A stretch of DNA of 64,000 nt from an uncultured Clostridia bacterium (GCA_944372365.1 CALVYP010000001.1:85279-149278); one strand, 5' to 3'; positions 15,689 to 48,100 are shown, counted from the first letter of the stretch. A program made the numbers and translations. The notes: a model not told the origin generated them from the letters alone.

Positions 15689-15833
15689 ATGTTTATTAAA
15701 CTTAATGCCTTTTGCTCAACGCTATTTTCAAGCCACGCCACATGGCTTATTATAGCATAAAAGTTGAAATGTTTTCAACAATTTTTTTGTGCATTTAATT
15801 ATAAAAATACTAGTCAAAATAATCTCTGCGCAA

Positions 15834-17156
15834 CTATTTTTCATTGTTTATGCTTTCATCTGCTATAAGTTGCACTTTGTCGGCTTCTGCTATTGGAAAG
15901 CCTATCTGTTCGCTTTCAGTTTGTTCTGCTTTTATTTTATCGCGGTTTGTTTGATTTAAATATTTAACATAAAAAACTAAAGCCGGCACGGCGATGCAAA
16001 TTGTTGCAACAAAACAAATTAAAAGAGCCCATCCTAGATTAAGTTTGTCGACTATGAAGCTTGCAATAAACGCAAATATTGCTCCTCCAAGATTTTCAGC
16101 GATAAAGTAATAGCTAAACATTTTCTCTAATGCCAGCCCATCAAAACAATGCGTCATTGTGCTTTTCATACTTATCCTATATGGATTTCTTGCCACATAC
16201 ATTATGCAAACAACGATTGAAACAATAATCAGTTTCGCCATAAATGACATGTCTATAAAATATGTAATACACATCAGCAAAACGCTTGTAAAAAACACAC
16301 CAATCAACACTGGCAAAAATTTTAATCCAAGTTTTTTCTCTGCGTGATGCATCAACAAATTAGCCGTTGCTGTAAACATTTTTGCAGCAAAATAAATCCA
16401 TCCTAATATAACTGAATCTGTGCCTATCTCCTGCAAAAAAGTTTTAGCACCGCTTTCAAACATTTCTGCTGCACCCCAAAAAGAAAACGCCAATATTATA
16501 ATAGCAATCACAAGTTTTTTGTATTTTCCAAATAAATTGATTTTAGGTTGTTTGTTTTCAATGTTGGGTTGTGACGAAACATAATTATCTTGCTTGTTTA
16601 TTTTAAAGAAAAATGTTGCGGCAAACGCCAAAACAAGCATCGCCATATAAATATAATAGGAAACAAACGGGTCAATTTGAAAAAAACATCCTGCCACAAC
16701 TGCACTTACAGCTTCAAAAACCCACCAAGCAGCAGTTGCCTTTCCTTCCAACTTAGAAGTCTGGTCTTTGTCATTGCCAATAATCACATCTAATAAAGAT
16801 GTTGTGTTGATTGATATGGAAAGATTGCCAATAGATTTAAAAATAACAAGCGCACACAACACATAGATATTGTTTGTCAACAAAAAGATTAAAATATATG
16901 CAAAAAAGCATAAAGTGCCTATACGCAATCTGTTTAAAATGGAAACCCTTTTGAATATAAAATTTAATGGCAACGCCAAAACAATTACAAAAAACAGGTC
17001 GATAGAAGTGATTAAAAACACTTGAGAAAAAGAAAAACCTTTCACCAAAGTTAAAAACATTGTTTCTAGTGTGTAATAAAACAACAAATCATAGGTGATG
17101 GTTTTAAAAAGTACATACAAAATTTTATTTCTTTTTTGGTCGTTTGCTTTATCCAT
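15834..17156 (-). CDS. MFS-type transporter (polytopic membrane protein)
   Basis: 440 aa with about 12 predicted TM segments and a hydrophilic C-terminal tail. Family-level call only. Confidence 0.55.
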   Translation of the reverse strand: MDKANDQKRNKILYVLFKTITYDLLFYYTLETMFLTLVKGFSFSQVFLITSIDLFFVIVLALPLNFIFKRVSILNRLRIGTLCFFAYILIFLLTNNIYVLCALVIFKSIGNLSISINTTSLLDVIIGNDKDQTSKLEGKATAAWWVFEAVSAVVAGCFFQIDPFVSYYIYMAMLVLAFAATFFFKINKQDNYVSSQPNIENKQPKINLFGKYKKLVIAIIILAFSFWGAAEMFESGAKTFLQEIGTDSVILGWIYFAAKMFTATANLLMHHAEKKLGLKFLPVLIGVFFTSVLLMCITYFIDMSFMAKLIIVSIVVCIMYVARNPYRISMKSTMTHCFDGLALEKMFSYYFIAENLGGAIFAFIASFIVDKLNLGWALLICFVATICIAVPALVFYVKYLNQTNRDKIKAEQTESEQIGFPIAEADKVQLIADESINNEK

Positions 17157-17254
17157 TTGTCTATTCTCTTCAATTTTTAATTATAATAAAAAAATAATAA
17201 TTTTGTCAAAATTACTTTATAAAAAATTATTGTTTTGTTATAATTTGATTATAA

Positions 17255-18973: not shown

Positions 18974-18980
18974 GGAAAAA

Positions 18981-20996: not shown

Positions 20997-21001
20997 CCAA
21001 A

Positions 21002-21820
21002 ATGCTTCACTGTGAATACATAACACAGATGAAGCATTTTTTTAGCGCCTACAACTTTGCCTGTAAAAGCATGTGGAAAGACTCAACCGACAATCAAACA
21101 ATCATCAACAAGGCAAAACAGGCATACGATTTTTACAAAAAAAATTGCACGCGCGGCAAACGACTTTTTAGGCTGACCGGTCAGAGCGGCTCGGGCAAAA
21201 CCTCTCAACTTTTAAGCGCAACACTCAACTTTTGCAACAATCATAAAATCAAACCCATTCATATAGCAGTAAGAAATTATGCACAATTTCATCCTGATTA
21301 TGAAAATCTTAAAAACAGCAAAAACATGCGCGAGCAGACAAACGGTTTCGCTCTTAAAGTGCTGTTGTGGGTGCTTAAATTTGCTTTTGAAGATGGGCTT
21401 GACATCATATTAGAAATTGCATTATTAAATAAAAAATTCGAAAATTACATATTTTTTGAGATTTTTTCTAGAAATTATCATCATTTTTTTCAAATTATGG
21501 CAGTCAATAAAAAAATCAGTGATATTTTTATTTTTAAACGCCAAAAAAAATTACACCGAAACACTTCTTTAAAATCGGCAAAATATTTTGATTCATCACT
21601 GCAAAAAACCTTTAATTATCTCACAAAAAAATATAATTTTAATTGCGTTGTTTGGTCGGTTTCAAGCACTGAACCATGCTTTGTTGGAAGAGGCAAAAAC
21701 GCCTATAAAATATTTAAGAAAAATAGAAAAATAATTCCAAAAAAATTTATCAGCGAAAGCAAGCTTGTTTGTGCTAAGCAAAATTTTTTGGAAGAATTAT
21801 ATCGGGATGGTTTAATTTAA
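21002..21820 (+). CDS. P-loop kinase, zeta-toxin-like
   Basis: Walker A LTGQSGSGKTSQLLS resembles the GGQPGSGKT of zeta/PezT kinases. It starts 6 nt after the ABC gene stop. Family assignment is tentative. Confidence 0.4.
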   Translation: MLHCEYITQMKHFFSAYNFACKSMWKDSTDNQTIINKAKQAYDFYKKNCTRGKRLFRLTGQSGSGKTSQLLSATLNFCNNHKIKPIHIAVRNYAQFHPDYENLKNSKNMREQTNGFALKVLLWVLKFAFEDGLDIILEIALLNKKFENYIFFEIFSRNYHHFFQIMAVNKKISDIFIFKRQKKLHRNTSLKSAKYFDSSLQKTFNYLTKKYNFNCVVWSVSSTEPCFVGRGKNAYKIFKKNRKIIPKKFISESKLVCAKQNFLEELYRDGLI

Positions 21821-22592
21821 TATATTCAACATATTTTTTTTCAACATATTGCCACACCGACTGCAAAGCGCAAATTTGTTTGACATCAACACGCAAGTTA
21901 AATTTGTTTTCAAATGCCTTGATCAAATGTTTTTCAAAACTTTTTTCGCACCTTGCAAGCAACCTTGAAACATCATTAAAAACCGAAGAGTAACTTACAA
22001 ATGCAAAATCAACCACTGCCACAAGCTTGCCGTTTTTAACAATCAGGTTGCCGGGGTTTAAATCGCCATGCGTTAAAATCAAGCCTTGTTTTTCTGCCAA
22101 AACAAGCGGTTTGTGTTTTTTTATATCATAACCTTGCTTATCGCTGACTTTTGAAAGCTGATTTAAAAAAGTTGAGGTTTTGGGCAATTTAAAAGCCGGC
22201 TTGATTTTCGAAAGTGCAAGCAAAAATTCGGCTATATCTTTTGCAATCCTTTTCTTTTGCCAAAAAAACAATTTGGCCTTTGAAAGCGACTTGCCTTTTA
22301 TATATTCATGAACAGAATAAGGTTTGCTTTTATAATAACAAAGTTTTAACTTGGGCAGCATAACGCCCAACTCTTTGCCGCCAAGTTGCTGCAAAAACAT
22401 GCATTCCTTTACAAGCGCGTTTGCAAAAAACGCATTGCGCGGAAACCTAAAAACAAACTTGCCGGTTTTTGTTGAGACGATAAAAACAAAATTCGTCCAG
22501 CCGCTGCTTTCCTGCTTTATGCTTTTAACATTTTTTAGCTGCAAGTTTATTATGTCAAAAAAGTTGTCAGTCGCTTTAAAAAATTTTCTCAT
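21774..22592 (-). CDS. aminoglycoside/macrolide phosphotransferase-family kinase (APH-like)
   Basis: Catalytic loop THGDLNPGNLIV and metal-binding VVDFAF motifs. Confidence 0.75.
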   Translation of the reverse strand: MRKFFKATDNFFDIINLQLKNVKSIKQESSGWTNFVFIVSTKTGKFVFRFPRNAFFANALVKECMFLQQLGGKELGVMLPKLKLCYYKSKPYSVHEYIKGKSLSKAKLFFWQKKRIAKDIAEFLLALSKIKPAFKLPKTSTFLNQLSKVSDKQGYDIKKHKPLVLAEKQGLILTHGDLNPGNLIVKNGKLVAVVDFAFVSYSSVFNDVSRLLARCEKSFEKHLIKAFENKFNLRVDVKQICALQSVWQYVEKKYVEYIKLNHPDIILPKNFA

Positions 22593-25944: not shown

Positions 25945-26505
25945 TTGGATAAGAAAGATTTTATCACAAAAAAAGACGGCTTTGAAGGTTTTACAAGGCT
26001 TAGGCGCGTGCTTAATGATTGCTTGCAGAATCCAAAAGATTATAGAAAAAGCTTCATGGATATGTTCACCGATGTTGGAACGCTTGCCATGGATGGCAAC
26101 TGCATCGCACAAGATGTGATGAGCTACTATTATAAAGACGGCGTTAAAAAATTCATCCCTGAAAACTATGATCTTTACATGCAATGGGCAATTTTGGCTG
26201 CCGCAAACGGCAATGAATTTACCATTGAAAAACTGCAATTCTTTTTAAACTATGCCTTTGAAGAAATTGTAAGCAGCGACAAGTTGCCGCAGATTTTATC
26301 TAAAAACGGCATTGATGAAACAAATTATATGTATATTTTGGGCAACCTGCTTTGCGAAGGCGTGGTTGATGAATTGCAAATCACACCAAAAAAACTTGTT
26401 GAAATGCAGGGGCAAACCAGCAAATATTCGCCTGAAAAGCTTAGAGACTATAAACGCGCGCTGGATAGAGCGTTGCCAAAAGTTTTAGAATATCTGCTTG
26501 CATAA
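25945..26505 (+). CDS. hypothetical protein with a Sel1/TPR-like segment
   Basis: TTG start with an AAGGAGA SD. AQDVMSYYYKDGV..YDLYMQWAILAAANGN is Sel1-repeat-like. Confidence 0.45.
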   Translation: MDKKDFITKKDGFEGFTRLRRVLNDCLQNPKDYRKSFMDMFTDVGTLAMDGNCIAQDVMSYYYKDGVKKFIPENYDLYMQWAILAAANGNEFTIEKLQFFLNYAFEEIVSSDKLPQILSKNGIDETNYMYILGNLLCEGVVDELQITPKKLVEMQGQTSKYSPEKLRDYKRALDRALPKVLEYLLA

Positions 26506-26530
26506 AAGTTTCCGATTGGAAACTTTTTTT
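26504..26530. terminator. bidirectional terminator
   Basis: AGTTTCC-gatt-GGAAACT flanked by A and T runs. Confidence 0.7.
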
Positions 26531-26999
26531 AATTTAACGAAACACTCATAATGTCGCCAACCTCATATAAATCGGCTGCAAGGCGCAATCTCTGAAAGCA
26601 AAGCCCGATAAGTTTTTCATATTCCTCACCTTTTTGTGCAAGCAAAAATAGTTTTATAAGCAGCCTATTTTCAAGCCCGATTGCATTTATAAAACATTTG
26701 GTTTTGTTCCAATTGATTTTAAAACTACGATTTTGTTTATACGAAAATAGCTCACGCAAGATTTCAAGCTGCTCTTCATTCAATGCGTAAAATTTATCGC
26801 TGCCCATAAAATTGCCAAGCATGCGATAGGATGATCGCAACTTGAACATCAAGTCAAAAACTTCATCAATTAAAATGTTTTTGCTTTCATTATCCAAACT
26901 TATAAACACAAAGCCTTTTTGTTTTAACGAGTTTGAATATGCTTTGGCAAGCGCTTGATATTCATCGGGCGTGGGACAAACAAAATCATCATATTCCAT
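26529..26999 (-). CDS. hypothetical protein (156 aa) downstream of the coupling protein
   Basis: ATG at 26999 preceded by GAGGTG. The longer ORF to 27095 runs through the GC-rich hairpin region. Confidence 0.5.
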   Translation of the reverse strand: MEYDDFVCPTPDEYQALAKAYSNSLKQKGFVFISLDNESKNILIDEVFDLMFKLRSSYRMLGNFMGSDKFYALNEEQLEILRELFSYKQNRSFKINWNKTKCFINAIGLENRLLIKLFLLAQKGEEYEKLIGLCFQRLRLAADLYEVGDIMSVSLN

Positions 27000-27148
27000 A
27001 TTGCACCTCGGCATTTGATATGATTTTGCATAGAAAAGTGTGACACGCGCTCGCGCGCGGCAGTGCTTTGCGCGCTGCCGCTTTTTGCGCCGCAAAGCCG
27101 CGGCACAAAAAAAACCTTGCCTTACGGCAAGGTTTTGCGCGAACGCGG

Positions 27149-29140
27149 TTAGAAGAAATTTGGTCTGCCAAAAATTACTTGATTGCGCTTATCAATATCG
27201 TAGAACACTTTTGCCTCATCCAAATACTTGCTGGTGCGAGGAAGAACAAGCGGTGGATATTGCGTCATCTGCGGTGTTTTAAAGAATGGTGCTAAATTAC
27301 AACGGATTGGGTTGTATCTAAACACTTTGATAATTGCCTGCCCAAATGGCAAACGGCTGAGTTCGTAAGGGTCAACAAGCGGCACAACAGTTTTTTGTGT
27401 TTGCAGCGAAGTTGACTGTGATGTTGAATCCTTTCCTTCGTTTTTAGTGACTTGCTCTTCTCTTGTGATAAGTTGAACATTTCCGCAGCTTTTTGAAAAT
27501 GCTTCACGAGTGGAAGTGTCTTCCGAACCCAAGAATATTTGAATGTTGAAGTTACCTTTTATTGTTTCAGCTGTTTCTTTGCCATACTTTGTATCCAACT
27601 GTGTGAATGATTGAACAATGATTTCAAAGAAAATGTTTCTTGAACGCGAAACTGTAACCATTGTTGCAAAATCTTGAATCACTGGCAGGTTACCAAACTC
27701 ATCAAGCAAGAAATAAACATGTCTTGGAAGTTTTTGCATTGGGCGATCATTAGCAATATCAACAAGCGTTCTGTAAAGTTGCGCAATGCAGATTGTTGCA
27801 AGCGGATGACGCTCTTTTTTGTGATCTGGAATTTTGATAAAGAAAGCTGTTGGTTTATCAACGAATTTGTTAAAGTCTATATCTGTGCCACTGGTTGCAT
27901 AGCAAATGCCCATATCTTGCATAAGCGCGTTAATTTTGCCCGACATAACACTGAGATATGATTTTGTTGTAGTAGGCGCACTGTCGATAACGTTTGAAGT
28001 CAAGCCGCCCACTTGCGAAGTTTTCGCTCTGCCAGTGCAAAAGCGCTTAATTGAAGCGTATTGATTGTCTGGATCGTTATCACGCTTATTGACAATTTTA
28101 TAAAGGTTGTAAAAGTTGAATTGATCTTTTCTAAGTTTATTTTCGCCAAGCCTTGGATCAACCGAATCTTCAAGCATCGCCAACATCACGCCGTAAAGGA
28201 AATCCTGTGCACCCTGCTCCCATATTGTGTCATTTGTTCCCGGCGAGACTGGGCAGACAGCTGCCGCAACGCCTCTTAAATCAAAGGTGGCTTCGTTTAT
28301 CATCTTCTGCTTTGCAGCGGAAAGTTCACGAGCAAGATCTTCTTCCGTTGGATATGCCACACCATGAAATTCATACCATGTGTCGCCATATTGAACGCCA
28401 TACAGTGCTTCTTTGCCAGCCTGCGACGGAGTGCAGCCAGAATATTTTTTTGCCTCTTGTGCCAAATTCATTGCCTTGTTGTAGGTGTTAAACGCCCTTT
28501 CCAATGGGTTCCATCTTGAAGAAGCATAAGGGTCATCAAGGTCGTAGATTTGCACATCATATCCTTCTTCAATAAGTGCGCGTGCGTGTTTTGCGTAAAG
28601 TTCGCCTTTTGGGTCGGCAATAACAAGCGACGGCTTTTCGGCGGTGCGCGCGTAAATTCTAATTGCAGGATCGATAAGCATGGTTGTTTTACCTGTTCCC
28701 GTTGTACCTATAACCAACGCGTGCATTTCGTCTTTCATTGTCACTTCATATCTGCCGCCAACTTTTTCGTTACGGATGACTGTGCCTGTTTTTGTAAGAC
28801 TTGGAAGTGAATTCCATGTTTGATTTATCAAAAATTTATCATTCAAAATTTGGTCGTGGCTCATAAAGCCAGAGTCGAAGTGTAAAGCAAACTCCTCGCC
28901 TCCTGCGGTTTTTCCTGTTCTGGCAACTTCTGGATGCTTGTTCCTGCGCATAGAGAAATAAAGTGCCATGCAAAAGCCAATCAATGCGCCAACGCCCAAC
29001 CCTATAAAAGACATTTGGTTGGTAAGCAATCCAATATCCCATGCGCCCGCTTGAGCAAACGATATGCCAAAGCCAATGCCATAGCCAAGAATGGTGCAAA
29101 CCAGCACCCAAACCACAAATCTTACAACTGCTTTTTTCAT
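27149..29140 (-). CDS. type IV secretion coupling protein (VirD4/TraG/TraD family ATPase)
   Basis: Two N-terminal TM helices, Walker A VIGTTGTGKTT and Walker B YFLLDEFGNLP. ATG at 29140 with a GAGGT SD. Terminator CCTTGCC-ttac-GGCAAGG at 27115..27132. Confidence 0.8.
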   Translation of the reverse strand: MKKAVVRFVVWVLVCTILGYGIGFGISFAQAGAWDIGLLTNQMSFIGLGVGALIGFCMALYFSMRRNKHPEVARTGKTAGGEEFALHFDSGFMSHDQILNDKFLINQTWNSLPSLTKTGTVIRNEKVGGRYEVTMKDEMHALVIGTTGTGKTTMLIDPAIRIYARTAEKPSLVIADPKGELYAKHARALIEEGYDVQIYDLDDPYASSRWNPLERAFNTYNKAMNLAQEAKKYSGCTPSQAGKEALYGVQYGDTWYEFHGVAYPTEEDLARELSAAKQKMINEATFDLRGVAAAVCPVSPGTNDTIWEQGAQDFLYGVMLAMLEDSVDPRLGENKLRKDQFNFYNLYKIVNKRDNDPDNQYASIKRFCTGRAKTSQVGGLTSNVIDSAPTTTKSYLSVMSGKINALMQDMGICYATSGTDIDFNKFVDKPTAFFIKIPDHKKERHPLATICIAQLYRTLVDIANDRPMQKLPRHVYFLLDEFGNLPVIQDFATMVTVSRSRNIFFEIIVQSFTQLDTKYGKETAETIKGNFNIQIFLGSEDTSTREAFSKSCGNVQLITREEQVTKNEGKDSTSQSTSLQTQKTVVPLVDPYELSRLPFGQAIIKVFRYNPIRCNLAPFFKTPQMTQYPPLVLPRTSKYLDEAKVFYDIDKRNQVIFGRPNFF

Positions 29141-29396
29141 TTTTACCTCTGTTGTTAGTATATCATACATAAACAGTTTTTAAAAATATAATCCAATAAA
29201 AAATACAAAAAAACAACATAATTTTTGATTAAGTTGTCAGCAATTCAGCAAAATATCTAATGTTTTTATACCATTTGCTTGAAAAAACTGCAAAAATGAC
29301 ATATAATTTAGTATCCATTCAGTTCTCGCCACACCCCGCAAGCAAGTTCGCCCTTCTCGTTTAATGCACAATGGCCACTAAACCAAAACCTTTTTT

Positions 29397-29537: not shown

Positions 29538-30020
29538 CTACATGGTGATGCGCTGTGAAGGGATTTTAACCGTTTTAATTGGTGTTAAAAGCTGCCTTGT
29601 TTTTAAGGTGCTTGTAAAATTTTTCTTGCTCTCTAAAATCAATTTATCATGCTGGATGATATGTTTTTCAGCAAGCACGGCAATAAATGTTGCAAGGTGC
29701 GGCTTTTCATAACGCTTTAAATATTTAATCCCAAGCACATTGTTGACATTTTCAATTTTTCCATCAAAATAAGCAACATCCAAAGCATATCTGCATGCTT
29801 TTTCTATGTTTTTGGGCTTGATGTTATAAAACTCTGCAATCTTTGCAAACAATTTTGCAATGCCCATTTCAACCAATCCGCGCTTTTGCATGGTGAAAAA
29901 TATCGCGTGAGATAAATACACGAAAGCTTTGGTGTTTTTATTGAAGCCAATCTGCGCCAAATCTGACGCAATTGAATTTAAACACATCATATCAAATTTA
30001 TTTTTACATACTCTAAGCAT
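29538..30020 (-). CDS. standalone Spo0A C-terminal (DNA-binding) domain protein
   Basis: Collinear with the Spo0A effector domain: KAFVYLSHAIFF.. / ..LFAKIAEFYNIKPKNIEKACRYALDVAY.. / ..KPHLATFIAVLAEKH. There is no receiver domain. AGGAGA SD. Confidence 0.65.
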   Translation of the reverse strand: MLRVCKNKFDMMCLNSIASDLAQIGFNKNTKAFVYLSHAIFFTMQKRGLVEMGIAKLFAKIAEFYNIKPKNIEKACRYALDVAYFDGKIENVNNVLGIKYLKRYEKPHLATFIAVLAEKHIIQHDKLILESKKNFTSTLKTRQLLTPIKTVKIPSQRITM

Positions 30021-34551: not shown

Positions 34552-35089
34552 TTTTCTCCTTTCTTATCGAAAACCTGCACCCGCAATAATTTTGTCTGTA
34601 AAGGTTGTATTGCTTTGAAAGCCTTATGCTGTCAAGATAGCCATCCTGCTTTTTAAAGTTCTCTGGCAAAAACTCGACGCCATATTGCTTTGCAACCTTT
34701 TGACCGATGCTGTTTATCTGCGCGGTGTTTTTATGCGGACTAACCGAAAGCGTTGTGGCAAACAAATCAAACCCACGCTGCTTTGCAACTTTGGCGGTTT
34801 GGCCTAGCCTGATTTCAAAGCAGATGCTGCATCTATCTCCGCCTTCTTTGTCAAGCTCATGCCCTTTTGCAAGCTGCAAAAATGTCTGTTCGTCATAGTC
34901 GCCTTCGATCACATCGATATGCATAAGTTTAGCATATCTTTTTTGTTCTTCCAAACGCTTTTGATATTCTTCAAATGGAAAAATATTAGGATTAAAGTAG
35001 ATTATTGTCAAATCATACCTATCCTTTAAAACTTCAATAACATGCGTAGAGCATGGACCGCAACAGCTGTGCAACAATAATTTTTTCAT
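34541..35089 (-). CDS. queH: epoxyqueuosine reductase QueH (DUF208)
   Basis: LLLHSCCGPCS, GGDRCSICF and YRQNYCGCRFS motifs. Confidence 0.85.
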   Translation of the reverse strand: MKKLLLHSCCGPCSTHVIEVLKDRYDLTIIYFNPNIFPFEEYQKRLEEQKRYAKLMHIDVIEGDYDEQTFLQLAKGHELDKEGGDRCSICFEIRLGQTAKVAKQRGFDLFATTLSVSPHKNTAQINSIGQKVAKQYGVEFLPENFKKQDGYLDSIRLSKQYNLYRQNYCGCRFSIRKEKSEL

Positions 35090-35547
35090 TTGTTCACCTT
35101 CATAATTTCAACAATTTCGTTTAGCACAGGATTTTTTTGCGCATAGTCACTAAAATTTTCACCCTTTTGATTTATAAATGTGATAAACGAAAGCGTTTGT
35201 CCCTGTTTTTCAATCACGCTTTGCGCAATCAGCATGTTGTTTTCGCCTTCTATTATATATATAGGATAGACAGCCCCTGCAAGTTTGATGTTAAACTTTT
35301 TTTTCAGCTTCAAATTATCGGTTACTTTTTTGTAATCTTTAATCATCAAATCAATGGCAGTGCTGCCCACAAACTGCTGCCCCTTAAATAACGAAATAAC
35401 ATTGCCTTGCTTAGAAATTATGTTTGCAACAAAATCTAAACCCTGATCATTTTTTAAGTTATATCTTTGCCTTGCCCAAGCAAAACCTTTTGGCAAAATT
35501 AAGTTTTCCATGGCTAGAATTGTAGCAGAAAATGACAAAAAAGTCAA
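35086..35547 (-). CDS. hypothetical protein
   Basis: ORF only. The TTG at 35547 abuts the ArsR-family stop. An alternative ATG is at 35511. Confidence 0.4.
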   Translation of the reverse strand: MTFLSFSATILAMENLILPKGFAWARQRYNLKNDQGLDFVANIISKQGNVISLFKGQQFVGSTAIDLMIKDYKKVTDNLKLKKKFNIKLAGAVYPIYIIEGENNMLIAQSVIEKQGQTLSFITFINQKGENFSDYAQKNPVLNEIVEIMKVNK

Positions 35548-35880
35548 TTACAAATACTCCACCGCATACATCATTACATCGCTGATTGATTGCTCTTGCA
35601 GCGAATAAAGCAAAATTTTGCCGTCGCGCCGATAGTTTACCAAACCTTGATCTTTTAAAATTTTAAGCTGATGCGAAACCGTGGTTTGGTTTATATTCAA
35701 TAGGTTTGATATGTCTCCCACACACATATCACAAACCGAAAGGCATGTGATTATTTTAAGGCGCGTGGAATCTGAAAAATTTTGAAAATAATCCGCAAGT
35801 TTGCTTATTTGGCTGTCGGTTGGCAAAAATCCTAAAATTTGGTTTTTACGCCTTTCCGTCAGCATCAAAAAATCTGGCAT
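35548..35880 (-). CDS. ArsR/SmtB-family metalloregulator
   Basis: LKIITCLSVCDMCVGDISNLLNINQTTVSHQLKILKDQGLV. The wHTH carries a Cys-containing alpha3-type site (CDMC, in the position of ELCVCDL). Confidence 0.85.
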   Translation of the reverse strand: MPDFLMLTERRKNQILGFLPTDSQISKLADYFQNFSDSTRLKIITCLSVCDMCVGDISNLLNINQTTVSHQLKILKDQGLVNYRRDGKILLYSLQEQSISDVMMYAVEYL

Positions 35881-36034
35881 TTAATTCTCCTTTGCAGTGA
35901 CATTTTTTCAAATGCACTCATATATATTTCCGTAACAAAAATAACATTGCATAAGATAAATATCAAAACTGATTTTTAAATAAAAAATTGGTTTTTTGCA
36001 GAAAAACAAATTTATTTGTAGAATGGGAGGAATT

Positions 36035-36217
36035 ATGAATCAGCAAGATATTTTATTGGTGCTTTTGCTTTCAATTTTTTCAAGCAGCAACGATGTCAAT
36101 TTAAACACCAACACAAACTTTTTGCTTTTGTTGCTGTTGGCTCTCTCTGGCAACAACTCTGGCGGCTGTTGGAGTGGCTGCTCCAACACCTGCGCTTGCG
36201 CCGGCAGAATGTTTTAA
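36035..36217 (+). CDS. 60-aa Leu-rich peptide with a Cys-rich C-terminus
   Basis: GGGAGGA SD, then the ATG at 36035. Sequence MNQQDILLVLLLSIFSSSNDVNLNTNTNFLLLLLLALSGNNSGGCWSGCSNTCACAGRMF. Followed by a GC-rich hairpin terminator. Confidence 0.5.
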   Translation: MNQQDILLVLLLSIFSSSNDVNLNTNTNFLLLLLLALSGNNSGGCWSGCSNTCACAGRMF

Positions 36218-36233
36218 TCTCACCCCCAGCCAC

Positions 36234-36326
36234 CCGCGCAAGCATTTTCTTGCGCCGCGCGCAAGAAAAGCCCTTGGGCGCTGCCCAAGGGCGCGCTTTT
36301 TCAAGCGCCGCTTGCGCGGTTTTTTT
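36234..36326 (+). repeat. GC-rich nested-hairpin element (copy C), which also acts as a terminator
   Basis: Closing stem CCGCGCAAGC/GCTTGCGCGG plus T7 encloses GCGCAAG..CTTGCGC and GCCCTTGGGC-gct-GCCCAAGGGC hairpins. Confidence 0.6.
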
Positions 36327-36523
36327 CGCTGCGAAATATCATTTATTTAAACGATAAAAAAAGAAGAAAAAAATTTTTTAATTTTTTTTAAAAAAATATG
36401 TAAAATCGTTTGGTGATTATTTTTTTTTATGCTAATATGTGTTTGTAAATAAGATTGAATATTAAATCTTTTTTTACAAATATTAAAAAAGAAAGCATTT
36501 TGTCAAACTTCAACCTATTTCAA

Positions 36524-36623
36524 ACATAAGGAGGATGGGCGGAAGGTTGCTGAAAGAATGGCAACAAACATGGCAGAGTGTGAAATGGAGGTTTTCTTAT
36601 GAATCTATTTTCTTTATTAGGTG
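36524..36623 (+). repeat. left arm of the ~100-bp inverted repeat (5' UTR, SD, ATG and first 8 codons of the pilin-like gene)
   Basis: Its reverse complement matches 37063..37163 apart from about 4 mismatches and 1 indel. Confidence 0.9.
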
Positions 36624-36985
36624 CTTCTGTTAGCGGCTGGACTGATTTGGCTGATAAGCTTGAGCAAGATTGGATAAAGCAAATGTTTGATATTTTAAGC
36701 CCTATCCTTTGGGCGATCATGGCGGTTGTGGGCGCAGCTGGCATTGTTTATTCTGTTTTCTTGGGCGTAAACTTGGCAAGAGCAGAAGATCAATCCAAGC
36801 GTGACGAAGCTAAAAAGCGTTTGATTACAACAATTATTGCAGTTGCTGTTGTGGTTGTATTGATCATATTCTTCAACACGCTGCTGCCTATGATCATCGG
36901 CGCCTTCATTGATCCAACCAAAGATTTAGGAGGCAATGTTGAGACTGGTGGTGTAATTCAACTTGCCATTTCACTTATAAAATAA
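36599..36985 (+). CDS. small two-TM protein, TrbC/VirB2 pilin-like
   Basis: GGAGG SD. The TM1-charged loop-TM2 layout (ILWAIMAVVGAAGIVYSVFLGV-NLARAEDQSKRDEAKKR-LITTIIAVAVVVVLIIFF) resembles Gram-positive conjugative pilin-like proteins. Tentative. Confidence 0.45.
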   Translation: MNLFSLLGASVSGWTDLADKLEQDWIKQMFDILSPILWAIMAVVGAAGIVYSVFLGVNLARAEDQSKRDEAKKRLITTIIAVAVVVVLIIFFNTLLPMIIGAFIDPTKDLGGNVETGGVIQLAISLIK

Positions 36986-37003
36986 AATAATATAAAAAAT
37001 TAA

Positions 37004-37030
37004 ACGACCCTTTTGGGGTCGTTTTTTTTT
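37004..37030. terminator. bidirectional terminator inside the IR-bounded segment
   Basis: ACGACCC-ttttg-GGGTCGT followed by T9, with an A-run upstream. Confidence 0.8.
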
Positions 37031-37062
37031 GCGCGCGCCTTCCTACCAACTGTTAATTGCAT

Positions 37063-37163
37063 CACCTAATAAAGAAAATAGATTCATAAGAAAACCTCCA
37101 TTTCACACTCTGCCTTGTTTGTTGCCATTCTTTCAGCAACCTTCCGCCCCTCCCCCCTTATGT
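37063..37163 (-). repeat. right arm of the inverted repeat (it reads inward and encodes only MNLFSLLGDAINSW-stop)
   Basis: See the left arm. On the minus strand: ATGAATCTATTTTCTTTATTAGGTGATGCAATTAACAGTTGGTAG. Confidence 0.9.
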
Positions 37164-37266
37164 TTTTTAATGATTTATTGTGTTGTTGGCTTGAAAGCTT
37201 TTTGAAATGGATTTAATTTTTTAGTTGTAAAATTTTTAACTACATGCTATACTTTAAAGGATTGTT

Positions 37267-37359
37267 GGAGACGTATCGAAGTGGTCGTAACGAGCTTGAC
37301 TCGAAATCAAGTTGTCCGCTAACCCGGGCACGTGGGTTCGAATCCCACCGTCTCCGCCA
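37267..37359 (+). tRNA. tRNA-Ser (anticodon CGA)
   Basis: Acceptor GGAGACG/CGTCTCC, anticodon arm CTTGA-CTCGAAA-TCAAG, long variable arm, T-arm GTGGG-TTCGAAT-CCCAC, GCCA end. Promoter TTGTAA-N17-(TGc)TATACT at 37225..37253. Confidence 0.9.
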
Positions 37360-37464
37360 TAATTTTATCGCGGGGGTAAATGAAAAATATGCGCGGGCGG
37401 GCTATGCGCTAGCCGCGGCTATAAAACATTTGCAAACAAAAAAAAACACCGTTTGGTGTTTTTT

Positions 37465-38124
37465 TTATTTTTTGCTGCCAGAGTCAGATTCATACTGCGT
37501 AGAAAAGCCTTCGTTAACTTTCGGGCGCAAATTGTTTGGAAAATGTACATCGGTTTTTATGTCGTTGACAACTTTTTGCAGTTTGGTTGTTATGTTGTAA
37601 GGATCAGCGATATCCCACAACACAACCGAGCTTGACGTCGCGCGAATGTATATATCACCAACCTTAAACCACTTGTCGCTTAGCCCTACTTTCAAGTTAA
37701 CGCTTTGAATGTCGGCATAGTATATATTGCGCATGTCAATGCCGATAACCCCGCTGCGCACAATTATTCGCGTGTTTGTGAAAACATATTCAATATTTTT
37801 TTGCTGAGTTGACGCCGTAACCATATTTGCAATCCAAATCCATACAGGAGTTAGGTGAATCACAAAAAATATGCAAATAATTAAAGTGAAATACCACGGC
37901 AGTTGCCCAAAAATGTCAAAGCCAAACATACAACCTAAAAATGCGCCGTCAAAAATCAGCCAGATAAATGCAAACGGCATCATCCTAAAAATCTGCCCGC
38001 AAATAAATGCAGAACGCTTTGGTTTGCCGCGCCACAAAATCTGCTCGTCTTTTGCAAGCGTATCTTCAATTGTGGTTGCCTTCATGCCGTCGTTTTTAAA
38101 ATAATTTTCATTGAACTTTGCCAT
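37465..38124 (-). CDS. membrane protein with a bacterial PH (YdbS/YdbT-like) domain
   Basis: ATG 38124 with a GGTGGGAA SD. EQILWRGKP.., then 2 TM helices, then ..YVFTNTRIIVRSG....IYYADIQSV, as in bPH_2 proteins. Confidence 0.65.
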   Translation of the reverse strand: MAKFNENYFKNDGMKATTIEDTLAKDEQILWRGKPKRSAFICGQIFRMMPFAFIWLIFDGAFLGCMFGFDIFGQLPWYFTLIICIFFVIHLTPVWIWIANMVTASTQQKNIEYVFTNTRIIVRSGVIGIDMRNIYYADIQSVNLKVGLSDKWFKVGDIYIRATSSSVVLWDIADPYNITTKLQKVVNDIKTDVHFPNNLRPKVNEGFSTQYESDSGSKK

Positions 38125-38180
38125 TTCCCACCTACAAAAGCATTTTAACATATAAATTAAAAAAAAGCCAATATATTTGG

Positions 38181-38669
38181 CTATCTTTCAAAGTGTTGTT
38201 TTTTACTTTTTATGCCGCACTCCACGCTTGCAACTGCTCGTAGTTCGGGCAATATTCCATTTAAATTATCAATTTCCTGCTGTATTATTCCCGCAAGTTT
38301 GCCGCTCAGCCAAACGCTTTGCCACTGAGCGCCCTCATCCTGAAACTTTACACATATTTCAAACGCTCGCAAGTTTTTATATAGCATTCGCGGACGGCAC
38401 ATGTTGTCTTCCCAAAAATCCATTTCCTGCTTGAATTGAATAATTTTTGGATTAAACAGCGCTCTAATTTCCCCGCCTATATGTGCGCTGACAACCAATA
38501 TCTGCTGATTCTCTCCAATTTGATTCGCCGAAAGGCTGCAACACGACCTGCCTTCTTCCCAATTAAAACTAAGCGTGTCACACAAATCCTGTGCAATGCG
38601 CAAAGAGTTTTCGTCGATCGGCGAATTTTTGCATGCGTTTTGCGGAAAACTTGTTATCGGTTTTATCAT
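38181..38669 (-). CDS. peptide-deformylase homologue lacking the HExxH metal ligands
   Basis: Collinear with PDF. Motif 1 is CSLSANQIG (normally GVGLAANQIG). Motif 2 is WEDNMCRP (normally EGCLS). Motif 3 is IIQQEIDNLNGIL (normally QHEIDHLNGIL). Confidence 0.6.
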   Translation of the reverse strand: MIKPITSFPQNACKNSPIDENSLRIAQDLCDTLSFNWEEGRSCCSLSANQIGENQQILVVSAHIGGEIRALFNPKIIQFKQEMDFWEDNMCRPRMLYKNLRAFEICVKFQDEGAQWQSVWLSGKLAGIIQQEIDNLNGILPELRAVASVECGIKSKKQHFER

Positions 38670-38732
38670 ATTTCACATTATATGAATGCAAAATATATTT
38701 TATGAAATAAAAAAAATCGGTTGCCCGATTTT

Positions 38733-39227
38733 TTATTCTTCGTCTTCGGTTTGTTCTTGGCTGTCGTCTTGATTCTCTGCTGGTTTTTCCGCAGATTTTT
38801 TTGCAGCTTTTTTTGATTGCGATTTTTCTTCAACGCCTGCGATTTTGTTTGCCCAGCCACCAACAACCGGAACATCTTTTTTCAAGCAAATGAAAACCAA
38901 AGCAACAATTTCCAATGCCACAAGCACGGTAAGCAAAATAACTTGAATGATGAGATATGCCATTTGTGCATTCACATCGCCACCCATTGTGATGATGATG
39001 TAGAACAAGAAATCAAAGAACAATCTTACAACTGCAATGGCTGCAAGAATGATGTATGGCTGCAAAGTTTTTGAAGCAGTTTGTTTATCCTTAACCCCAA
39101 ACATTGCAACAAGCACTGGAATTATTCCAAACAAAACACTGCAAAACGGGCCAAGTGTTGGCACAGCAAAAAGCAAAACGCCAATAAAAACTAATGAAAT
39201 TAAAAATGCTTGCATTGATTTATTCAT
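38733..39227 (-). CDS. hypothetical 4-TM membrane protein with a charged C-terminal tail
   Basis: ATG 39227 with an AGGAGA SD. Terminator ATCGG-ttgc-CCGAT downstream. Confidence 0.55.
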   Translation of the reverse strand: MNKSMQAFLISLVFIGVLLFAVPTLGPFCSVLFGIIPVLVAMFGVKDKQTASKTLQPYIILAAIAVVRLFFDFLFYIIITMGGDVNAQMAYLIIQVILLTVLVALEIVALVFICLKKDVPVVGGWANKIAGVEEKSQSKKAAKKSAEKPAENQDDSQEQTEDEE

Positions 39228-41843: not shown

Positions 41844-42161
41844 ACAAACTCTCCCACAACAATTTATTCAAGAAAATAAAAAATTGTGAAAAATAATTAA
41901 ATAATAAAAAAATATTATAAAAATGCCTGTTTTTTATAAAAAAATTGATTTTTTTTGCGTATTTTTTAGAAATTATTTATTTTTAAAATTATTTTTTATT
42001 TTTATTTCAACAAATTATTTTGGCGCTTGGCTTTTCATAATGAAAAATATGTTTATTAAATAATTATATATTATATATATTACATACATAAATTATTTTG
42101 TTTTTGCAAAAAATTATGTTAGAATGTTTTTGTCAAAATATGACAAAAAGAGGTGTTTAGC

Positions 42162-45100
42162 ATGAACAAAATAAAAAAAGTTTTAAGCGGTTTTGTTTTG
42201 GGCGCGGCAGCAACTACAATGATTGTGGCGGGCAGCCTTTTTGCGCAACAAGAAAAAACCCAAACTTACAATGCTGCTGTAACCGAGCAACAAATTGTAA
42301 ACACGCTTCCAGCATTTGTAGATCAGTCCGGTTTGCAAAATGACTACTATTTCACCGAAGAAGTGCCAATCAAATTTAATGTTGCAGTGGAAGGTTCGTC
42401 AAGTGCTGATTATATCTTTAAATATTATCCAGATGGCACGGCAACCGATGAAGCAAAAAACCACTTTTATTATTTTGACATTGCAAGCGTTTCAATTTAT
42501 ATTGACAATGTTCGTTTAAACATAGCTGCAGAGAATGCTGAAAAATTGATTTTAAAATCGGCAGGCACTGTTTCAATAAATCAACAAGGCGGCGATCAGG
42601 CTGGACAAAGCAACATTTCGCCAGAGATCGTGTGCTTTAAAATTGTTTATGACTCCTCTGCAACAGAGCCGGGGGTGGTTGAAGGATCCGTTAAATACGA
42701 CAATAATAGCTACACAATCACTCCGGCAGAATTGCGCATCAACCAAACCGGCTTGCTTAGAGTTGATGTGCAGTATGACCTTTACGACACAACCAACATC
42801 AAGGGCGCAGGTGCTGGAAACGATATGCAAGTTTCAAACATCCACACATCGCAATCATTCTCATATTCTTGCTTCTTTTTAAATGCAAGTGACTATTTCG
42901 AATCTACCCTTGACAAGGATTCTCCAAAACTCACATACCCTGGCTTTACAAGAACGCCAAGTGAATCGGCAATTTATAGATACAACTATTTCTATAATTA
43001 CGGCACAAACTATCTGCCATACATATCTTTCGATCCAAGCAAAGTTAGGCTTGAAGTAACAAGATACTACAACAACCAAACTCAAAATGCGGTTTTGCAG
43101 TATAACCCAGAAGCGAACACCATCTCTCAACCAGATTTTGTTTATCAAACAATGATCATGCCAGACGGCAGCGCACGAGTTTATTTCAACGATGTTGGGC
43201 AATATAACTTTAATTTTGAATTTATATATATCGTTGAAAATCAAACTGACTATCAAATCTACACAGTAGATTATCTGCTGCCAGACCAAAAGGCATATCT
43301 GTTTGGTGCACAGCTTAATTTCACCAACTATCAAACAAACGAATACAACGAATTTAAGCAAATCGCAAACAAAACAACCGACTCGGACGAGATTGAATAC
43401 AATCAAATTCTTCAAAATGCAGATGTGACTTATCTGTATGGCGAATCAACTGGCAGCGAAGCATTTCGAGAGAGTTTTCTTGCAAAAGGAGCAAATGCAA
43501 ATGTCACTCCTGTTGCAACCGATCAAACGCCACTTCGTTTTACAACAAATTTAAGTCAACTTACAAGCGAAGAAGCTACATTGCAAGTTTGGAGACTTGG
43601 CACAGATGACTGGAAGGCATATGATAAAATAAGCGACATAACTTCAACCATCAACGAGTCTGGCACATACTTTATTGAACTTACATATGATTTTGCTTCT
43701 CACACCAACACTTCTGGCGCAATTGACTCAACCAATGGCAACAATCACTTTAAACAATATTTCTACTTTAAAATTGACAAAACCGCGCCTTTATTCACAA
43801 TGCAAGCGCGCGGCGATTACAATGAAAAAAACCAAACATACGACTGGAAACAACTTTTATCCAAAGAATACACAAACACAGAAGAAGTAAAACTTACATA
43901 CGCTGGCTTTTCAAACATCTTCCACTCGGCTGTAAGATTTGAATATGAAAGATATGACTTTATAAACGACGGATTCACTTCTGGCACAATACAATTTAAT
44001 GAAAATGGTGAATATATCTTTGATCAAGAAGGCAACTACACCATCAAAGTATACTACGGAAAGCAAGGCACCGCCCAAGATCCAAGCATATCTTCTTTCA
44101 CAATAGATAGACAACAAATTCAAGATTTGGCAGCGTATGCAGTAAGCACAAGCGGAGCCAACAACGACTATCACATCAGCAATCCGCTTAATCAATTTTC
44201 AACAAACCAAAACTTTGTTTTCTCTTGGCAAGTCACCAAACCAAGTGGCGCAAAAACATATGGTAAATATAAATACTTTGCCCTTGATTACACCGACTAC
44301 TACGCATCGGTTGCCTCGGATTCACTTTCACTATTGCTTGGCTCTTTGCTTAGAAACGGAATTTTGGCAACAGACGCAGTTTTGAATATGGGCAATGCCG
44401 AAAGCAACTCTTGGATTGATTATTCCAACGCTTCGGCTCTTATTCAAAACAACAACATCGTGCCTGCATCATATGTAAAATCAAACGCAGGGCTTTATAT
44501 CTTCCAAATCTACGACCAAGCAGGCAACAGCGAAATTTATGCTATCTTGCTTGATAACTCTCAGCCATACTTTGTTTTAGAAACAGATGAAGGCTATGCA
44601 CTCATCAGTGCCAACCACACGGTAACAAGCGATGCAGTCCTTCATTGGGCCGACAACAAAGCAATTCAAGTAAACGGCTTTGTTAACGGTGATTTTAATG
44701 AAAAAGTTTATTACAACAAAGACGGCAAAATGGACGACGAAATTGTAAGTGCTTTGCAGCAGTTAAAAGATTCTATTAAAACCTTTGCTGCTTCTTCCAC
44801 CAGCGATTCAATAGGCTATGGCAAAGACGGAAGCTACTATCTATGCGAAATTGATGACACATTCTTGTTTAAACATAAAGACACCGAAACATACACCTTA
44901 GAAACCGGCAACAGCATGAACATTCAGTTCTCCTACACTGTGCACTACACGCTTGTTAATGGGCTTTACACATTCTACTATTCAACCACAAACGACTCAA
45001 ACTATATCGATGCGGCAACTGGCGAAATTGTTGAAGCACTTATTTTCAATGATGTGCCACAGATTAACGGAAACGAACTGCACGACGCAAACATATATCT

Positions 45101-48100
45101 TTACCAAGCAAATGGACAAAGGGCTTTCTACTACGGCGTGCCTGGCTCGCTAAACCTTTTCTCAACAACTGGTGAAGCTGTGACAGCAACCGAAGGTGAA
45201 AACGGGCTTATGCTTAATGGCGTTGCTTTGCAAGCCACAAACTTTGTGGATATGGAAGGCACATATGTGTTCTTAATTAGAGATGCATCAAACACAGAAG
45301 GGTCAAACCTTTCAGAAGATCAAAAGTTTATGCAATATGCTTCCAACTATCAATACCTGCGTGTAACCGGCGATCAATCTCTCACACAAATTTACTACAA
45401 AGAAACTAACGGACAGGGCGAAGAGAACTTGGTTACACTTACCGACGCATCATATGCAAACATCAGTGTTGTAAACACAGATCAAAACTGGATGGCAAGA
45501 TCAAGCTACTACAACCCTACTTCAATAGAGCAAACTCTTTACCTTTCGTTTAGGCCAACAATCGAACATGACGACAACACAAAAACACAAGTTGATCAAA
45601 TTGTGTTAAGTTACTATCCATATCAAAACCAAATTAAAACATACTACACTTCAACTGGACAGGTTAGATATGTGTTCTACAAAACACTTGCGTCAACGCC
45701 TGAATTTACACAAGTTGTATATGATTTTGATGAAAACGGCGCAAACACTCAAACCATTGAAGAGCCAATTCACATTACTTCAAACATGACAAGCGAAGGC
45801 AGGTATATTGTTACAAGAACATATGTTATGGAAGAAGGCTACACAGTTGATGTTTTTGACTACTATCAAAGAAACATCACCGCAACAGTTGACAGATATG
45901 GCGTGCTTACCCTGCCTGAAACAATCAGCTACAGCGCCGAAGTAAAATCTTACTCGCTAGATAATAACCAAAAAAATGTAACGGCAACTTTATATGAAAA
46001 CCTGCTTGTTCTGTCAACGCCACAAAACGGCAGCCTCCGCCCATTCGATGGCATAACTTTGAAATACAAGGCAACAGAAGATGGCGAAGAACTTGACACC
46101 GATAACATCACAACGGAAGACATTTATACAAACGATACAGCACTCCGCTTCTATCAATTTGATCAAATTTATTCATACGAATTGTATTATGCTGGCAATA
46201 AGGTTGACGCCTCTGGCACTGATGTTGTTGTTGACGACTCGCTTGAAAGCATCGTCGGCGGCGACATGATGATAAACATGTATGACGGCATAGTTGAGAA
46301 CTCTGGTATAATTTCAGTGGCCTTTCCATACTATGAAGCTGATTCAATCTTGCCGTCTGGCGACAGTTTCTACACCGAGAACATAACAAACTGGACGGAA
46401 AATGACAATGTAAACCCAACCCTTATCACAAACAAACTGCCGGTTAAGGTTTACATACCGCAATATAAATATACAATTCAAAACACAGAATCAGAAGTAG
46501 AAGCAAGCCAAGATGGTTTTTCAAAAGCGTATTCAAATGTCGCAAACGATTATTTGATAAGATTTAACCAAAATGATGAATATTCTGTCGTTTCATACTA
46601 TCAGCTTGTTGCAAGCATCTCTTACACAAGCAGCGATGGCAAAACTCACACATTCACTTCCACAACTGGAACTGACGGATACTTGGCGTTTGTTGATGAA
46701 ACAGGCTTGCCAGTGGAGCATTTTACACAACCTGGCACTTACTATGTAACCATAACGCAAGGCTATAACTCTGACTCAAATTCAAGCAACAATTTTAGAA
46801 AGAACTATAAATTTGCTTTCACTATTCAAAACAATAAGCCAGAGTTTACAATCACTCAATCCGGCGCTCCGCTTTCAACACTTGACGACGAAGAAAGCGT
46901 TGAAGTGCCAAACTACTACACAAATTCTAAAACAATCACCTATTCTTGGGAAGATTTAAATAATCAATACATTGCAAACATAGATAAAAAGAACATTGCA
47001 ATCACCTATTACGCTTCTATTTTATCAACAGCAATTGAAAATGTAATTCAAATAGACAATGGCATCCTTTCGCTGCAAAAAGAAAATCCGTTGTTGCTTA
47101 ACGCTCTTTCCTACACAAGCACAACCGACAGCCGCGGCGTGACAACCAACTATCTTACAATAGATTTGCAGGCACTTGGAATCTACCAAAACAATGCCGG
47201 CGTAAGATTGACCATGCAGTTTGAAGGGCACAATGATGATTACTACAAAACAACAACCAAACTTGTGACGGTTGATAAGCAAGCGTCATATCAAACAGTA
47301 AACTCGTTGATCGAAAAACTTCAAGGGCTTTCATCGGCTGGGCTGACACTTAATGACTCATCACTTAGAACTTACTTAGATGTTGAATATAAACAAGTTT
47401 CCAGCGCATATGATGCAGCCTACAACATCACAACCAATGCAACCGCAGGACAATTTAGAAATTACAGCTATCTTGTAGACGCAGCATTCTTTGATGAGCT
47501 GAAAGATATGGCGAATCAAAATGCAAACCAAGACAATGCAAGCAATTATAATGGTGGCACAATAAGGGCATACTTCCGTGAGATTGACGACCCTTACAAC
47601 AGCACCTATGAAGAATCTTACAGCGATTTTGCAGCGGCGTCTTACATCGATATGTCAAGCTCGGATGCAAACAGCTATCTGGAACAAAACAAATATTATC
47701 AAATTGTTGAAGAAGACTTGGCTGGCAACCTGACATTCTATATTGTTTACTACTTCTCTGTTGATGATGGCACTGGCTATCAACCAGATGACCAATATGA
47801 TGAAGAAGGCATGCCTATAACAATCTATCAAGGCATCACTTTCACCGATCATGACACAGTAAAATATGCAAGTGACGCTCAAATTGCAACCGGCAAGCTT
47901 AACTTATATTCATCAACAAACTTCACTCTCGACAACTTAAACTATCAAGGCGACGGCTGGCTTATCATCACAATCAATGGCGAAACATTTATGACAAGCC
48001 CATGGCTGGATGCAGGAAATGTTTACAAAGTTTCGCAAGGGCAAATTCAAACTGTTTCATTTGCAAGCATATTCCAACAATTTGCTTCGTCAAGCACTCC

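Follow-up and report, generated by a model that had tools for sequence, protein, structure and literature searches.

In the 64-kb stretch of DNA from an uncultured Clostridia bacterium analyzed here (CALVYP010000001.1:85279-149278; hereafter the window, with positions counted from its first nucleotide), a gene encoding a pilin-like protein is flanked by two inverted copies of its own 5' leader. The locus is probably a homology-driven DNA-inversion cassette switch for a surface-exposed VirB2-like protein of the T4SS_pilin family, with one expression site and one silent site. Inversion of the locus is well supported. A contig of the same species carries the segment between the leader copies in inverted orientation together with a recombinant arm, and repeated flips are found in a sister species. 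Both observations bear out the candidate invertible cassette (a flip of 36624-37062) that a first-pass annotation had proposed from the window alone.

Organization of the inverted repeat

A repeat search of the window identifies an inverted repeat of 111 nucleotides (nt), with arms 36530-36640 and 37046-37156 that are 91% complementary. Alignment and base-by-base comparison define a near-identical core, 36522-36623 and 37063-37165, with 3 mismatches (36532/37154, 36536/37150, and 36571/37115) and a 1-nt indel in a G run. The repeat of about 100 bp with one indel described in the first-pass annotation is thus present, and its count of about four mismatches is corrected to three. The arms are exactly identical over 36572-36623 (52 nt) and 36537-36570 (34 nt), and weaker similarity continues for a further 17 nt, out to 36640 and 37046. 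The leader is purine-rich in both arms, its first letters being AAACATAAGG. As annotated, each arm contains the 5' leader, a GGAGG Shine-Dalgarno (SD) sequence, the ATG, and the codons MNLFSLLG, as seen from alignment and translation, and a bidirectional terminator lies between the arms, on both strands at 37002-37024. The features of the locus are as follows.

36410-36438, plus strand: candidate promoter, with TTGGTG, a 17-nt spacer, and TGcTAATAT (extended -10, 36430-36438), and an A/T-rich tract upstream.
36443-36487, plus strand: conserved 5' element of 45 nt, with nested palindromes TTGTAAA...TTTACAA and AAGATT..AAATCTT.
36522-36623, plus strand: left arm, with the purine-rich 5' leader from AAACATAAGGAGG, the SD GGAGG, the ATG at 36599, and codons 1-8 (MNLFSLLG).
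36537-36570, plus strand: crossover interval of contig L002, from the variant pattern of its chimeric arm.
36599-36985, plus strand: pilin-like gene of 128 amino acids (aa), continuing from the left arm; Pfam PF18895 T4SS_pilin.
36624-37062, no strand: invertible body, with pilin codons 9-128, the terminator, and the tail of a mini open reading frame (mini-ORF); in opposite orientation relative to the right flank in L002.
37002-37024, no strand: bidirectional intrinsic terminator, detected on both strands and kept in strains and in L030.
37043-37087, minus strand: mini-ORF of 14 codons, MNLFSLLGDAINSW-stop, either left over from the 5' end of an alternative pilin allele or copied from it by conversion.
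37046-37101, minus strand: 56-nt stretch with SD, ATG, and mini-ORF, present here and missing from the right arm in many strains.
37063-37165, minus strand: right arm, with inverted leader, SD, ATG, and 8 codons; presumed silent site.
37267-37359, plus strand: tRNA-Ser(CGA), marker of the right flank, in the same syntenic position in related species.

A search for further copies of the arm, which the first-pass annotation had suggested for the genome, was made in the window; 25-mers and 32-mers from the arm occur there in exactly 2 copies, compared with 0 in 100 shuffles. We rejected a reading of the arms as terminal inverted repeats of a mobile pilin cassette (a transposon or miniature inverted-repeat transposable element), since the arms occur only twice in the window and the same syntenic pilin slot is present in species without the repeat.

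Inverted orientation in the window's species

Comparison of the locus in related genomes had been sought as a check on the cassette, and more than one orientation is found, in L002 and in the L018-type species described below. L002 is a 24.9-kb contig with a SPAdes-style NODE name and is 99.9% identical to the window. Its order is right flank, right arm, and then 36624-37097 in plus orientation, which is the predicted inversion. The arm of L002 on the tRNA-Ser side is chimeric: positions 36532 and 36536 have the variants of the right arm, and 36571 has the T of the left arm. Therefore, the crossover lies within 36537-36570. The exact arm stretches of 34 and 52 nt are shorter than k = 55, and thus the junction should rest on real reads; k = 55 is taken here as the usual top k of metaSPAdes, the k actually used for this assembly not being on record.

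Exchange between the arms is also seen in strain variation. The polymorphisms GGG[C/T]GG and ACA[T/A]GG segregate in both arms across strains, and the left/right states are C/T in L006, T/C in L009, and T/T in L005, those of L006 and L009 being reciprocal. The short Logan contigs L050-L052 and L040 have both ends inside the arms and are uninformative on orientation. No match to the arm of the window is found in the JGI metagenome contigs scanned. The window's own species is not found among the GTDB species representatives, where the best match has 70% amino-acid identity.

Shuffled cassettes in sister species

In contigs of related species (L013, L016, L018, and L021), two full-length pilin genes in convergent orientation occupy the slot that runs from the ArsR side to tRNA-Ser. 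Identity between the paralogs is 100% over 70-83 nt of leader in L013, L016, and L018 and only ~45% both upstream of the leader and over the first 90 coding nt.

For the L018-type species, we built four predicted states from L046 (UBA11517) by placing crossovers in the leader or the near-identical core of the gene, and checked independent assemblies for colinearity with each state. The reference state is found in L043-L047 and L067. The leader-inverted state, with N1C1 on the tRNA-side flank (N and C, N- and C-terminal parts), is found in L048, L049, and L069. L066 is core-inverted, with N2 joined to C1. L042 has both crossovers, with N1 and C2 on the tRNA-side flank, and its product P0022 is an exact N1 + C2 chimera. 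L070 has N1 on the tRNA-side flank and is not distinguishable from the double-recombinant state, and L068 has a divergent allele, to which no state is assignable. Alternative arrangements are found in roughly half of the informative sister-species assemblies, which come from different samples and, judged by contig naming, seem to come from different assemblers. L048 has tRNA-side flank sequence at both ends, which suggests that its sample is a mixed population of arrangements.

The L021-type species, in which the leaders have diverged, serves as a control. Among the matches listed (10 of ~22 contigs), 10/10 are colinear. The right cassette in L021 and L056-L065 (about L021 5603-5900, minus strand) has a -1 frameshift, TGGGTGG to TGGTGG, relative to the intact P0030, and it is called as a 90-aa fragment (93 aa in L065) in all ten contigs examined. 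Rearranged states are thus found only where leader identity is high, with none among the listed contigs with diverged leaders.

Several side observations concern the cassettes and leaders of related species. P0030 and P0039, on one 105-kb contig, are reciprocal N/C-terminus chimeras of the L013 types (P0030 has an A-type N-terminus and a B-type tail), a pattern consistent with a core crossover fixed in that lineage. In another species, L026 carries tandem units of ~22-nt period 3' of the pilin (4888-4979 and 5440-5757) that are inverted copies of repeats of its own leader, and this array provides many potential recombination partners in place of one arm. L046/L018 (UBA11517, DPGI01000009.1) has ~54-nt tandem repeats on the tRNA-side flank (L046 3486-3612 and 4148-4648), which are partial copies of the outer end of the leader. 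A gene for an IS200-type Y1 transposase lies 650 nt beyond these repeats in some strains only.

The right arm as the stump of a second cassette

The right arm of the window had been annotated as reading inward on the minus strand and stopping after 14 codons, and this holds: the frame from 37087 to 37043 encodes MNLFSLLGDAINSW followed by a stop. The mini-ORF sequence is found again, unchanged, at the start of the full-length pilins P0004 and P0006, which begin MNLFSLLGDAINSWEDLAQ. In L041, from the same species, the alternative allele is present in full length at the left site, behind the same left flank, and the right mini-ORF remnant is retained; the inverted repeat in L041 is 120 nt long and 98% identical. 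These allele matches, together with the convergent pairs in related species, indicate that the right arm of the window is the stump of a second, convergent pilin cassette.

The stump is reduced further in strains L005-L011, L054, and L055, in which the right arm is without 37046-37101 and consists of the leader only (~64 nt). L030 comes from a different species, with 77-79% nucleotide identity in neighboring regions, and has a perfect leader-only right arm of 39 nt. Its arm has the same TAGGAAGGCGCGCGC junction end as the short-arm strains, and the sequence is that of L030's own leader, unlike that of the window. The shared junction and the match to the resident leader indicate that the leader-only right arm is older than the split of the two species and has changed together with the leader of its own genome, by concerted evolution.

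Expression site and silent site

The first-pass annotation had proposed that the cassette would be an ON/OFF switch if only the left side has an external promoter, TGcTAATAT near 36430. The motif is present at 36430-36438, on the left flank only, and the promoter motif is kept in 11/11 species aligned; its activity as a promoter and an ON/OFF effect are putative. The linked ATGTAAAATCGTTTGGT motif is unique in the window. The 5' element at 36443-36487 ends in the 18-mer TTTTTTACAAATATTAAA, which is invariant in 11 species and has a single exact copy in the window, on the left flank. Between species, the region of promoter and 5' element is 87-89% identical, compared with ~75-80% for neighboring genes. 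The element would serve as an operator, with an ArsR-family gene 560 nt upstream on the opposite strand, or as an element of the 5' mRNA.

The 100 nt between the right arm and tRNA-Ser hold no counterpart of these left-flank motifs, and a consensus scan of 37166-37266 gives no match to a minus-strand promoter. The promoter of tRNA-Ser, TTGTAA-17-TATACT, is directed away from the switch. The conservation of these motifs on the left flank only points to a single expression site on that side and a single silent site by tRNA-Ser.

The duplicated leader could instead act at the level of RNA. In one version, the tRNA side would give rise to a short transcript that stops at the bidirectional terminator and, as a second copy of the leader, titrates a regulator; in the other, read-through would pair the two arms of the pilin mRNA. 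The exact leader copies are indeed placed around a bidirectional terminator, and the initial SD-like AAGGAGG of the leader resembles 5' mRNA stabilizers. This explanation is nevertheless highly improbable. In addition to the missing minus-strand promoter match, the leader folds no better than shuffles (z = -1.19), and an Rfam search of 35000-39000 at a permissive threshold matches tRNA-Ser alone and leaves the arms unmatched. The terminator lies between the coding sequence and the right arm, so both arms would seldom be on one RNA. Furthermore, the observed inverted and shuffled arrangements are left unexplained. A structured, riboswitch-like leader was rejected by the same folding result, the RNA fold being not more stable than shuffles.

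A proposed inversion switch

We infer the effect on expression, the purpose in surface variation, and the recombination enzymology of a switch that would work as follows. The left expression site, with the conserved promoter and 5' element followed by the leader, would be fixed. The right side, by tRNA-Ser, would provide a second copy of the leader, inverted and promoter-less, and recombination between the two leader copies would flip the whole intervening segment. In the ancestral form, represented by the sister species, two full-length convergent pilin cassettes would lie between the leaders, and a crossover in the leader would pick the cassette that is expressed. A crossover in a second zone, the conserved gene core, would swap the C-terminal tails, yielding four protein variants. 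In the window, the pilin would be ON in the present orientation. After inversion, the promoter and leader would be followed by the 14-codon stub and the terminator, and the only complete pilin gene would be OFF. The same ON/OFF logic would apply to the leader-only right arms of L005-L011 and L030. Such surface variation may serve escape from phage, immune, or partner recognition.

Several observations weigh against this switch. Coverage of L002 is low (4.6x), the final 60 nt of the contig contain 4 mismatches, and L002 is the one contig in inverted orientation among ~17 informative contigs of the window's species, ~16 of which are in the reference orientation. As a single contig of this kind, L002 is possibly a chimeric read or a misjoin. 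The arrangements could also have become fixed separately in different strains. Many strains have a right arm shorter by 56 nt, and L012, L014, L015, L017, L022, and L028 have a single pilin gene and no inverted repeat, indicating that the switch is dispensable. In addition, the left promoter was missed by a simple consensus scan at the threshold applied.

One explanation of these observations is that the locus is an evolutionary leftover of a convergent paralog pair with no switching function, in which recombination and conversion of the arms are neutral noise and L002 is an assembly chimera or a chimera of the polymerase chain reaction. The right arm is the remnant of a second cassette, it is shortened in many strains and absent from some species, and this species offers only one inverted contig, of low coverage, with a junction of the sort that template switching at inverted repeats can make. 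We consider a functionless leftover improbable. The leader-only arm has outlasted a speciation and, in each lineage, matches the resident leader exactly. The alternative arrangements are common in the sister species, in about half of the informative assemblies from different samples, and loss of leader identity goes together with a lack of rearrangements and decay of the right cassette. Moreover, the L002 junction requires reads spanning the recombinant arm. A decayed inverted gene duplication, which the first-pass annotation had named as the alternative to a switch, therefore stands as the history of the right arm, a remnant of a second cassette that is shortened in many strains. It does not stand as an inert fossil, the arm being homogenized with the left leader by ongoing exchange.

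Next to the tRNA-Ser of L012, a syntenic relative without the inverted repeat, an ADP-ribosylglycohydrolase gene (4745-5530) is inserted between tRNA-Ser and a bPH_2 gene.

Mechanism of recombination

The first-pass annotation had listed no invertase gene in the window. In agreement, a Pfam scan of 48 ORFs of the window detects no domain of a tyrosine or serine recombinase or of a transposase, with Phage_integrase, Resolvase, and DEDD included. The scan covers 48 of the 52 ORFs of at least 150 aa in the 64 kb, the other 4 lying inside or overlapping larger ORFs.

Crossovers are seen both in the leader and in the gene core, two unrelated zones that are each simply the stretch of highest identity. 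The arms range from 39 to 120 nt and are homogenized along their full length, and one crossover is mapped, to a 34-nt interval. The pattern fits homology-driven recombination, because the two crossover zones are unrelated, the homogenization extends over whole arms, no rearrangement is found where identity is lost, and no recombinase is encoded nearby. A precedent is the pneumococcal spnIII locus, in which inversions on 85-bp and 333-bp repeats persist without CreX and without RecA (PMC6620402).

The same switch could be driven by a site-specific recombinase encoded elsewhere (tyrosine, serine, or Piv-like), acting on a short core site in the leader, for example near the AAACATAAG boundary, and maybe also on a site in the gene core. 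Characterized invertible cassettes mostly use such enzymes, and the 64-kb window is only part of the genome. The arm of L030, at 39 nt, is short for efficient homologous recombination, and the outer boundary motif ACATAAG recurs across species. However, ACATAAG is also present in single-gene species without the inverted repeat (L012 and L022), and is thus a better fit to an mRNA feature. A short-core system also accounts poorly for crossovers in two unrelated zones that are merely the stretches of highest identity, and it would neither need nor produce homogenized arm identity over 64-120 nt. With no recombinase or transposase domain in the scanned ORFs, a distant recombinase seems unlikely, and homology-driven inversion remains our preferred mechanism.

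The pilin-like protein and its variation

The ORF had been described as a 128-aa pilin-like protein with two transmembrane segments. Consistent with this, it passes the threshold of PF18895 T4SS_pilin (30.1 bits against a cut-off of 26.6, E = 5e-07, residues 28-94) and is predicted to be a two-helix protein. The score for NCBIfam NF045849, Mbov_0395 pilin-like conjugal transfer protein, is 34.5 bits, below the cut-off of 40; the pilin is related to this family and is not a member of it. More than 160 homologs of the pilin are found, mostly in ENA and Logan metagenome assemblies, and precomputed PF18895 matches are on record for most of them. The related genome records are metagenome-assembled genomes (MAGs) named 'uncultured Clostridia/Firmicutes bacterium'.

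The AlphaFold2 model is a helical hairpin, with helices 24-61 and 65-103 joined by a 3-residue turn, and has a predicted local distance difference test score of 71 (83-88 in the core). A Foldseek search of the Protein Data Bank (PDB) with the model gives no match at E <= 0.001, and a sequence-profile search of the PDB gives a single weak match (E = 0.43) that we judge spurious. Because neither search gives a significant match, the predicted fold adds nothing beyond Pfam to the case for homology with solved VirB2 or TraA. The TANB77 'conserved pilin' (PMC11680825) was considered as a relative and rejected; it is Tad/type IV-pilus-like, 143-236 aa long, with one N-terminal helix, and belongs to a different family.

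The protein consists of a variable N-terminal part (codons 9-36), a conserved two-helix core with the loop ARAEDQSKRDEAKKR, and a variable C-terminal part (103-128). The loop AEDQSKRDEAKKR is invariant in the family alignment, and the near-invariant core LGVNLARAEDQSKRDEAKKRLITT is common to the homologs, whose N- and C-termini vary. By the positive-inside rule, the K/R-rich loop should be cytoplasmic, with both variable termini pointing outward. Flank identity within the species is 97-99%, and allele types match each other at 51-56% in codons 9-36 and 64-75% in codons 103-128. In addition, L053 carries a mosaic allele, with the N-terminus of the window and the C-terminus of another allele. 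Therefore, the segment between the arms is a hypervariable, presumably surface-facing cassette.

A VirD4/TraG-type coupling protein is encoded at 27149-29170 on the minus strand, 7.4 kb from the pilin (PF02534, 3e-45; also TraG-D_C and TrwB). The Pfam scan recognizes no VirB4, relaxase, or other component of a type IV secretion system (T4SS) in the window. The coupling-protein gene lies in a housekeeping context and adjoins 29538-30020 (minus strand), which has the C-terminal domain of Spo0A only. Beside it, ORFs 25945-26505 and 26529-27095 are without a Pfam match.

A wider reading, which we offer tentatively, is that a chromosomal, recombinase-less, two-zone shufflon occurs throughout this clade of uncultured gut Clostridia. 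Homogenized leaders and the invariant gene core would give four N/C combinations, or ON/OFF switching here, and the pilin, with the coupling protein 7 kb away, would be part of a T4SS-like apparatus fixed in the chromosome that serves interactions at the cell surface after co-option from conjugation, a role also proposed in Patescibacteria.

Genomic neighborhood

Between the ArsR-type regulator and the pilin promoter lies a small ORF, 35996-36217 (plus strand, 60-73 aa), whose central part is hydrophobic and whose tail is rich in Cys (..SGGCWSGCSNTCACAGRMF). Neither Pfam nor NCBIfam gives a match to it, strong terminators come after it at 36270-36320, and a 60-aa gene is called at the matching place in related contigs (L056 998-1180). 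Farther downstream, the ORF at 42153-50945 (plus strand) encodes 2930 aa with no Pfam family at E <= 1e-6 and may be a giant surface protein. The region 14329-22592 encodes a CAT-family acetyltransferase, two ABC exporters, a Zeta-toxin domain protein, and an APH-family phosphotransferase, typical accessory or resistance functions. The remaining neighborhood is housekeeping and syntenic across species.

Comparison with known systems

The closest counterparts of the locus in logic are the spnIII hsdS shuffler of Streptococcus pneumoniae and the Piv-dependent pilin inversion of Moraxella, and the locus also resembles the sap locus of Campylobacter fetus and the vpma and vsa loci of Mycoplasma. 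In spnIII (ivr/cod), a locus for type I restriction-modification, an expressed hsdS gene likewise faces promoter-less inverted partial copies, and at least two recombination zones from conserved 5' and central gene sequence shuffle N- and C-terminal variable domains. However, the cargo of spnIII is a DNA-specificity subunit rather than a surface pilin, the spnIII locus encodes a tyrosine recombinase acting on a 15-bp repeat whereas no recombinase gene is found nearby here, and one of the repeats here is the untranslated leader itself.

In the tfpQ/tfpI locus of Moraxella bovis and M. lacunata, Piv inverts a segment with the variable coding parts of a pilin gene, and the single promoter and constant 5' part are fixed outside it. 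The switching of a pilin gene by inversion of variable coding parts is common to both systems. Unlike the protein described here, the Moraxella pilin is a type IV pilus subunit with an unrelated fold and secretion route; its inverted repeats are short and lie within the coding region, and the gene for Piv is beside the locus, where none is found here.

The C. fetus sap locus of S-layer genes inverts through long homology in the conserved 5' regions of paralogs, with a single promoter and alternative cassettes. The homology likewise comes from conserved 5' regions of paralogous surface-protein genes served by one promoter. In sap, the invertible segment separates divergent genes and carries the promoter, and the conserved regions measure ~600 bp; the present locus has a fixed promoter, convergent genes, and arms of 40-120 nt. 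The vpma, vsp, and vsa systems of Mycoplasma have one expression site and silent cassettes, with recombination sites in the shared 5' untranslated or 5' coding region, a layout similar to the expression site, silent cassette, and conserved 5' region of the present locus. Unlike it, they have an adjacent Xer-like or HvsR tyrosine recombinase, short sites, many cassettes, and lipoproteins as cargo instead of a two-helix pilin.

Among VirB2-type pilins, PF18895 members are found as paralogs in arrays (bioRxiv 10.1101/2025.01.22.634366). Like the VirB2-like pilin arrays of Patescibacteria, Bartonella, and Anaplasma, the locus and its relatives hold multiple divergent paralogs, which in those arrays are thought to vary the T4SS surface. 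Those arrays are tandem, and inversion switching is not reported in 10.1101/2025.01.22.634366; here, by contrast, convergent pairs, homogenized leader repeats, and rearranged states are observed. We found no report of inversion switching of PF18895 or VirB2-type pilins in the literature searched, and papers on intragenic invertons and PhaseFinder mention neither pilins nor such an arrangement.

The locus offers a concrete, testable case of surface variation in abundant, uncultured gut Clostridia, and it indicates that identical leaders can act as recombination handles. It also has a practical consequence: metagenome assemblies break or flip at the locus, and pilin alleles or their orientation in MAGs are not to be trusted at face value. 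Inversion switches are well known. What sets this one apart is a whole untranslated leader serving as the repeat, the lack of a nearby invertase, a VirB2-type cargo, and convergent cassettes with a fixed promoter, and in the sister species the same locus is a two-zone shuffler of the exposed termini of the pilin.

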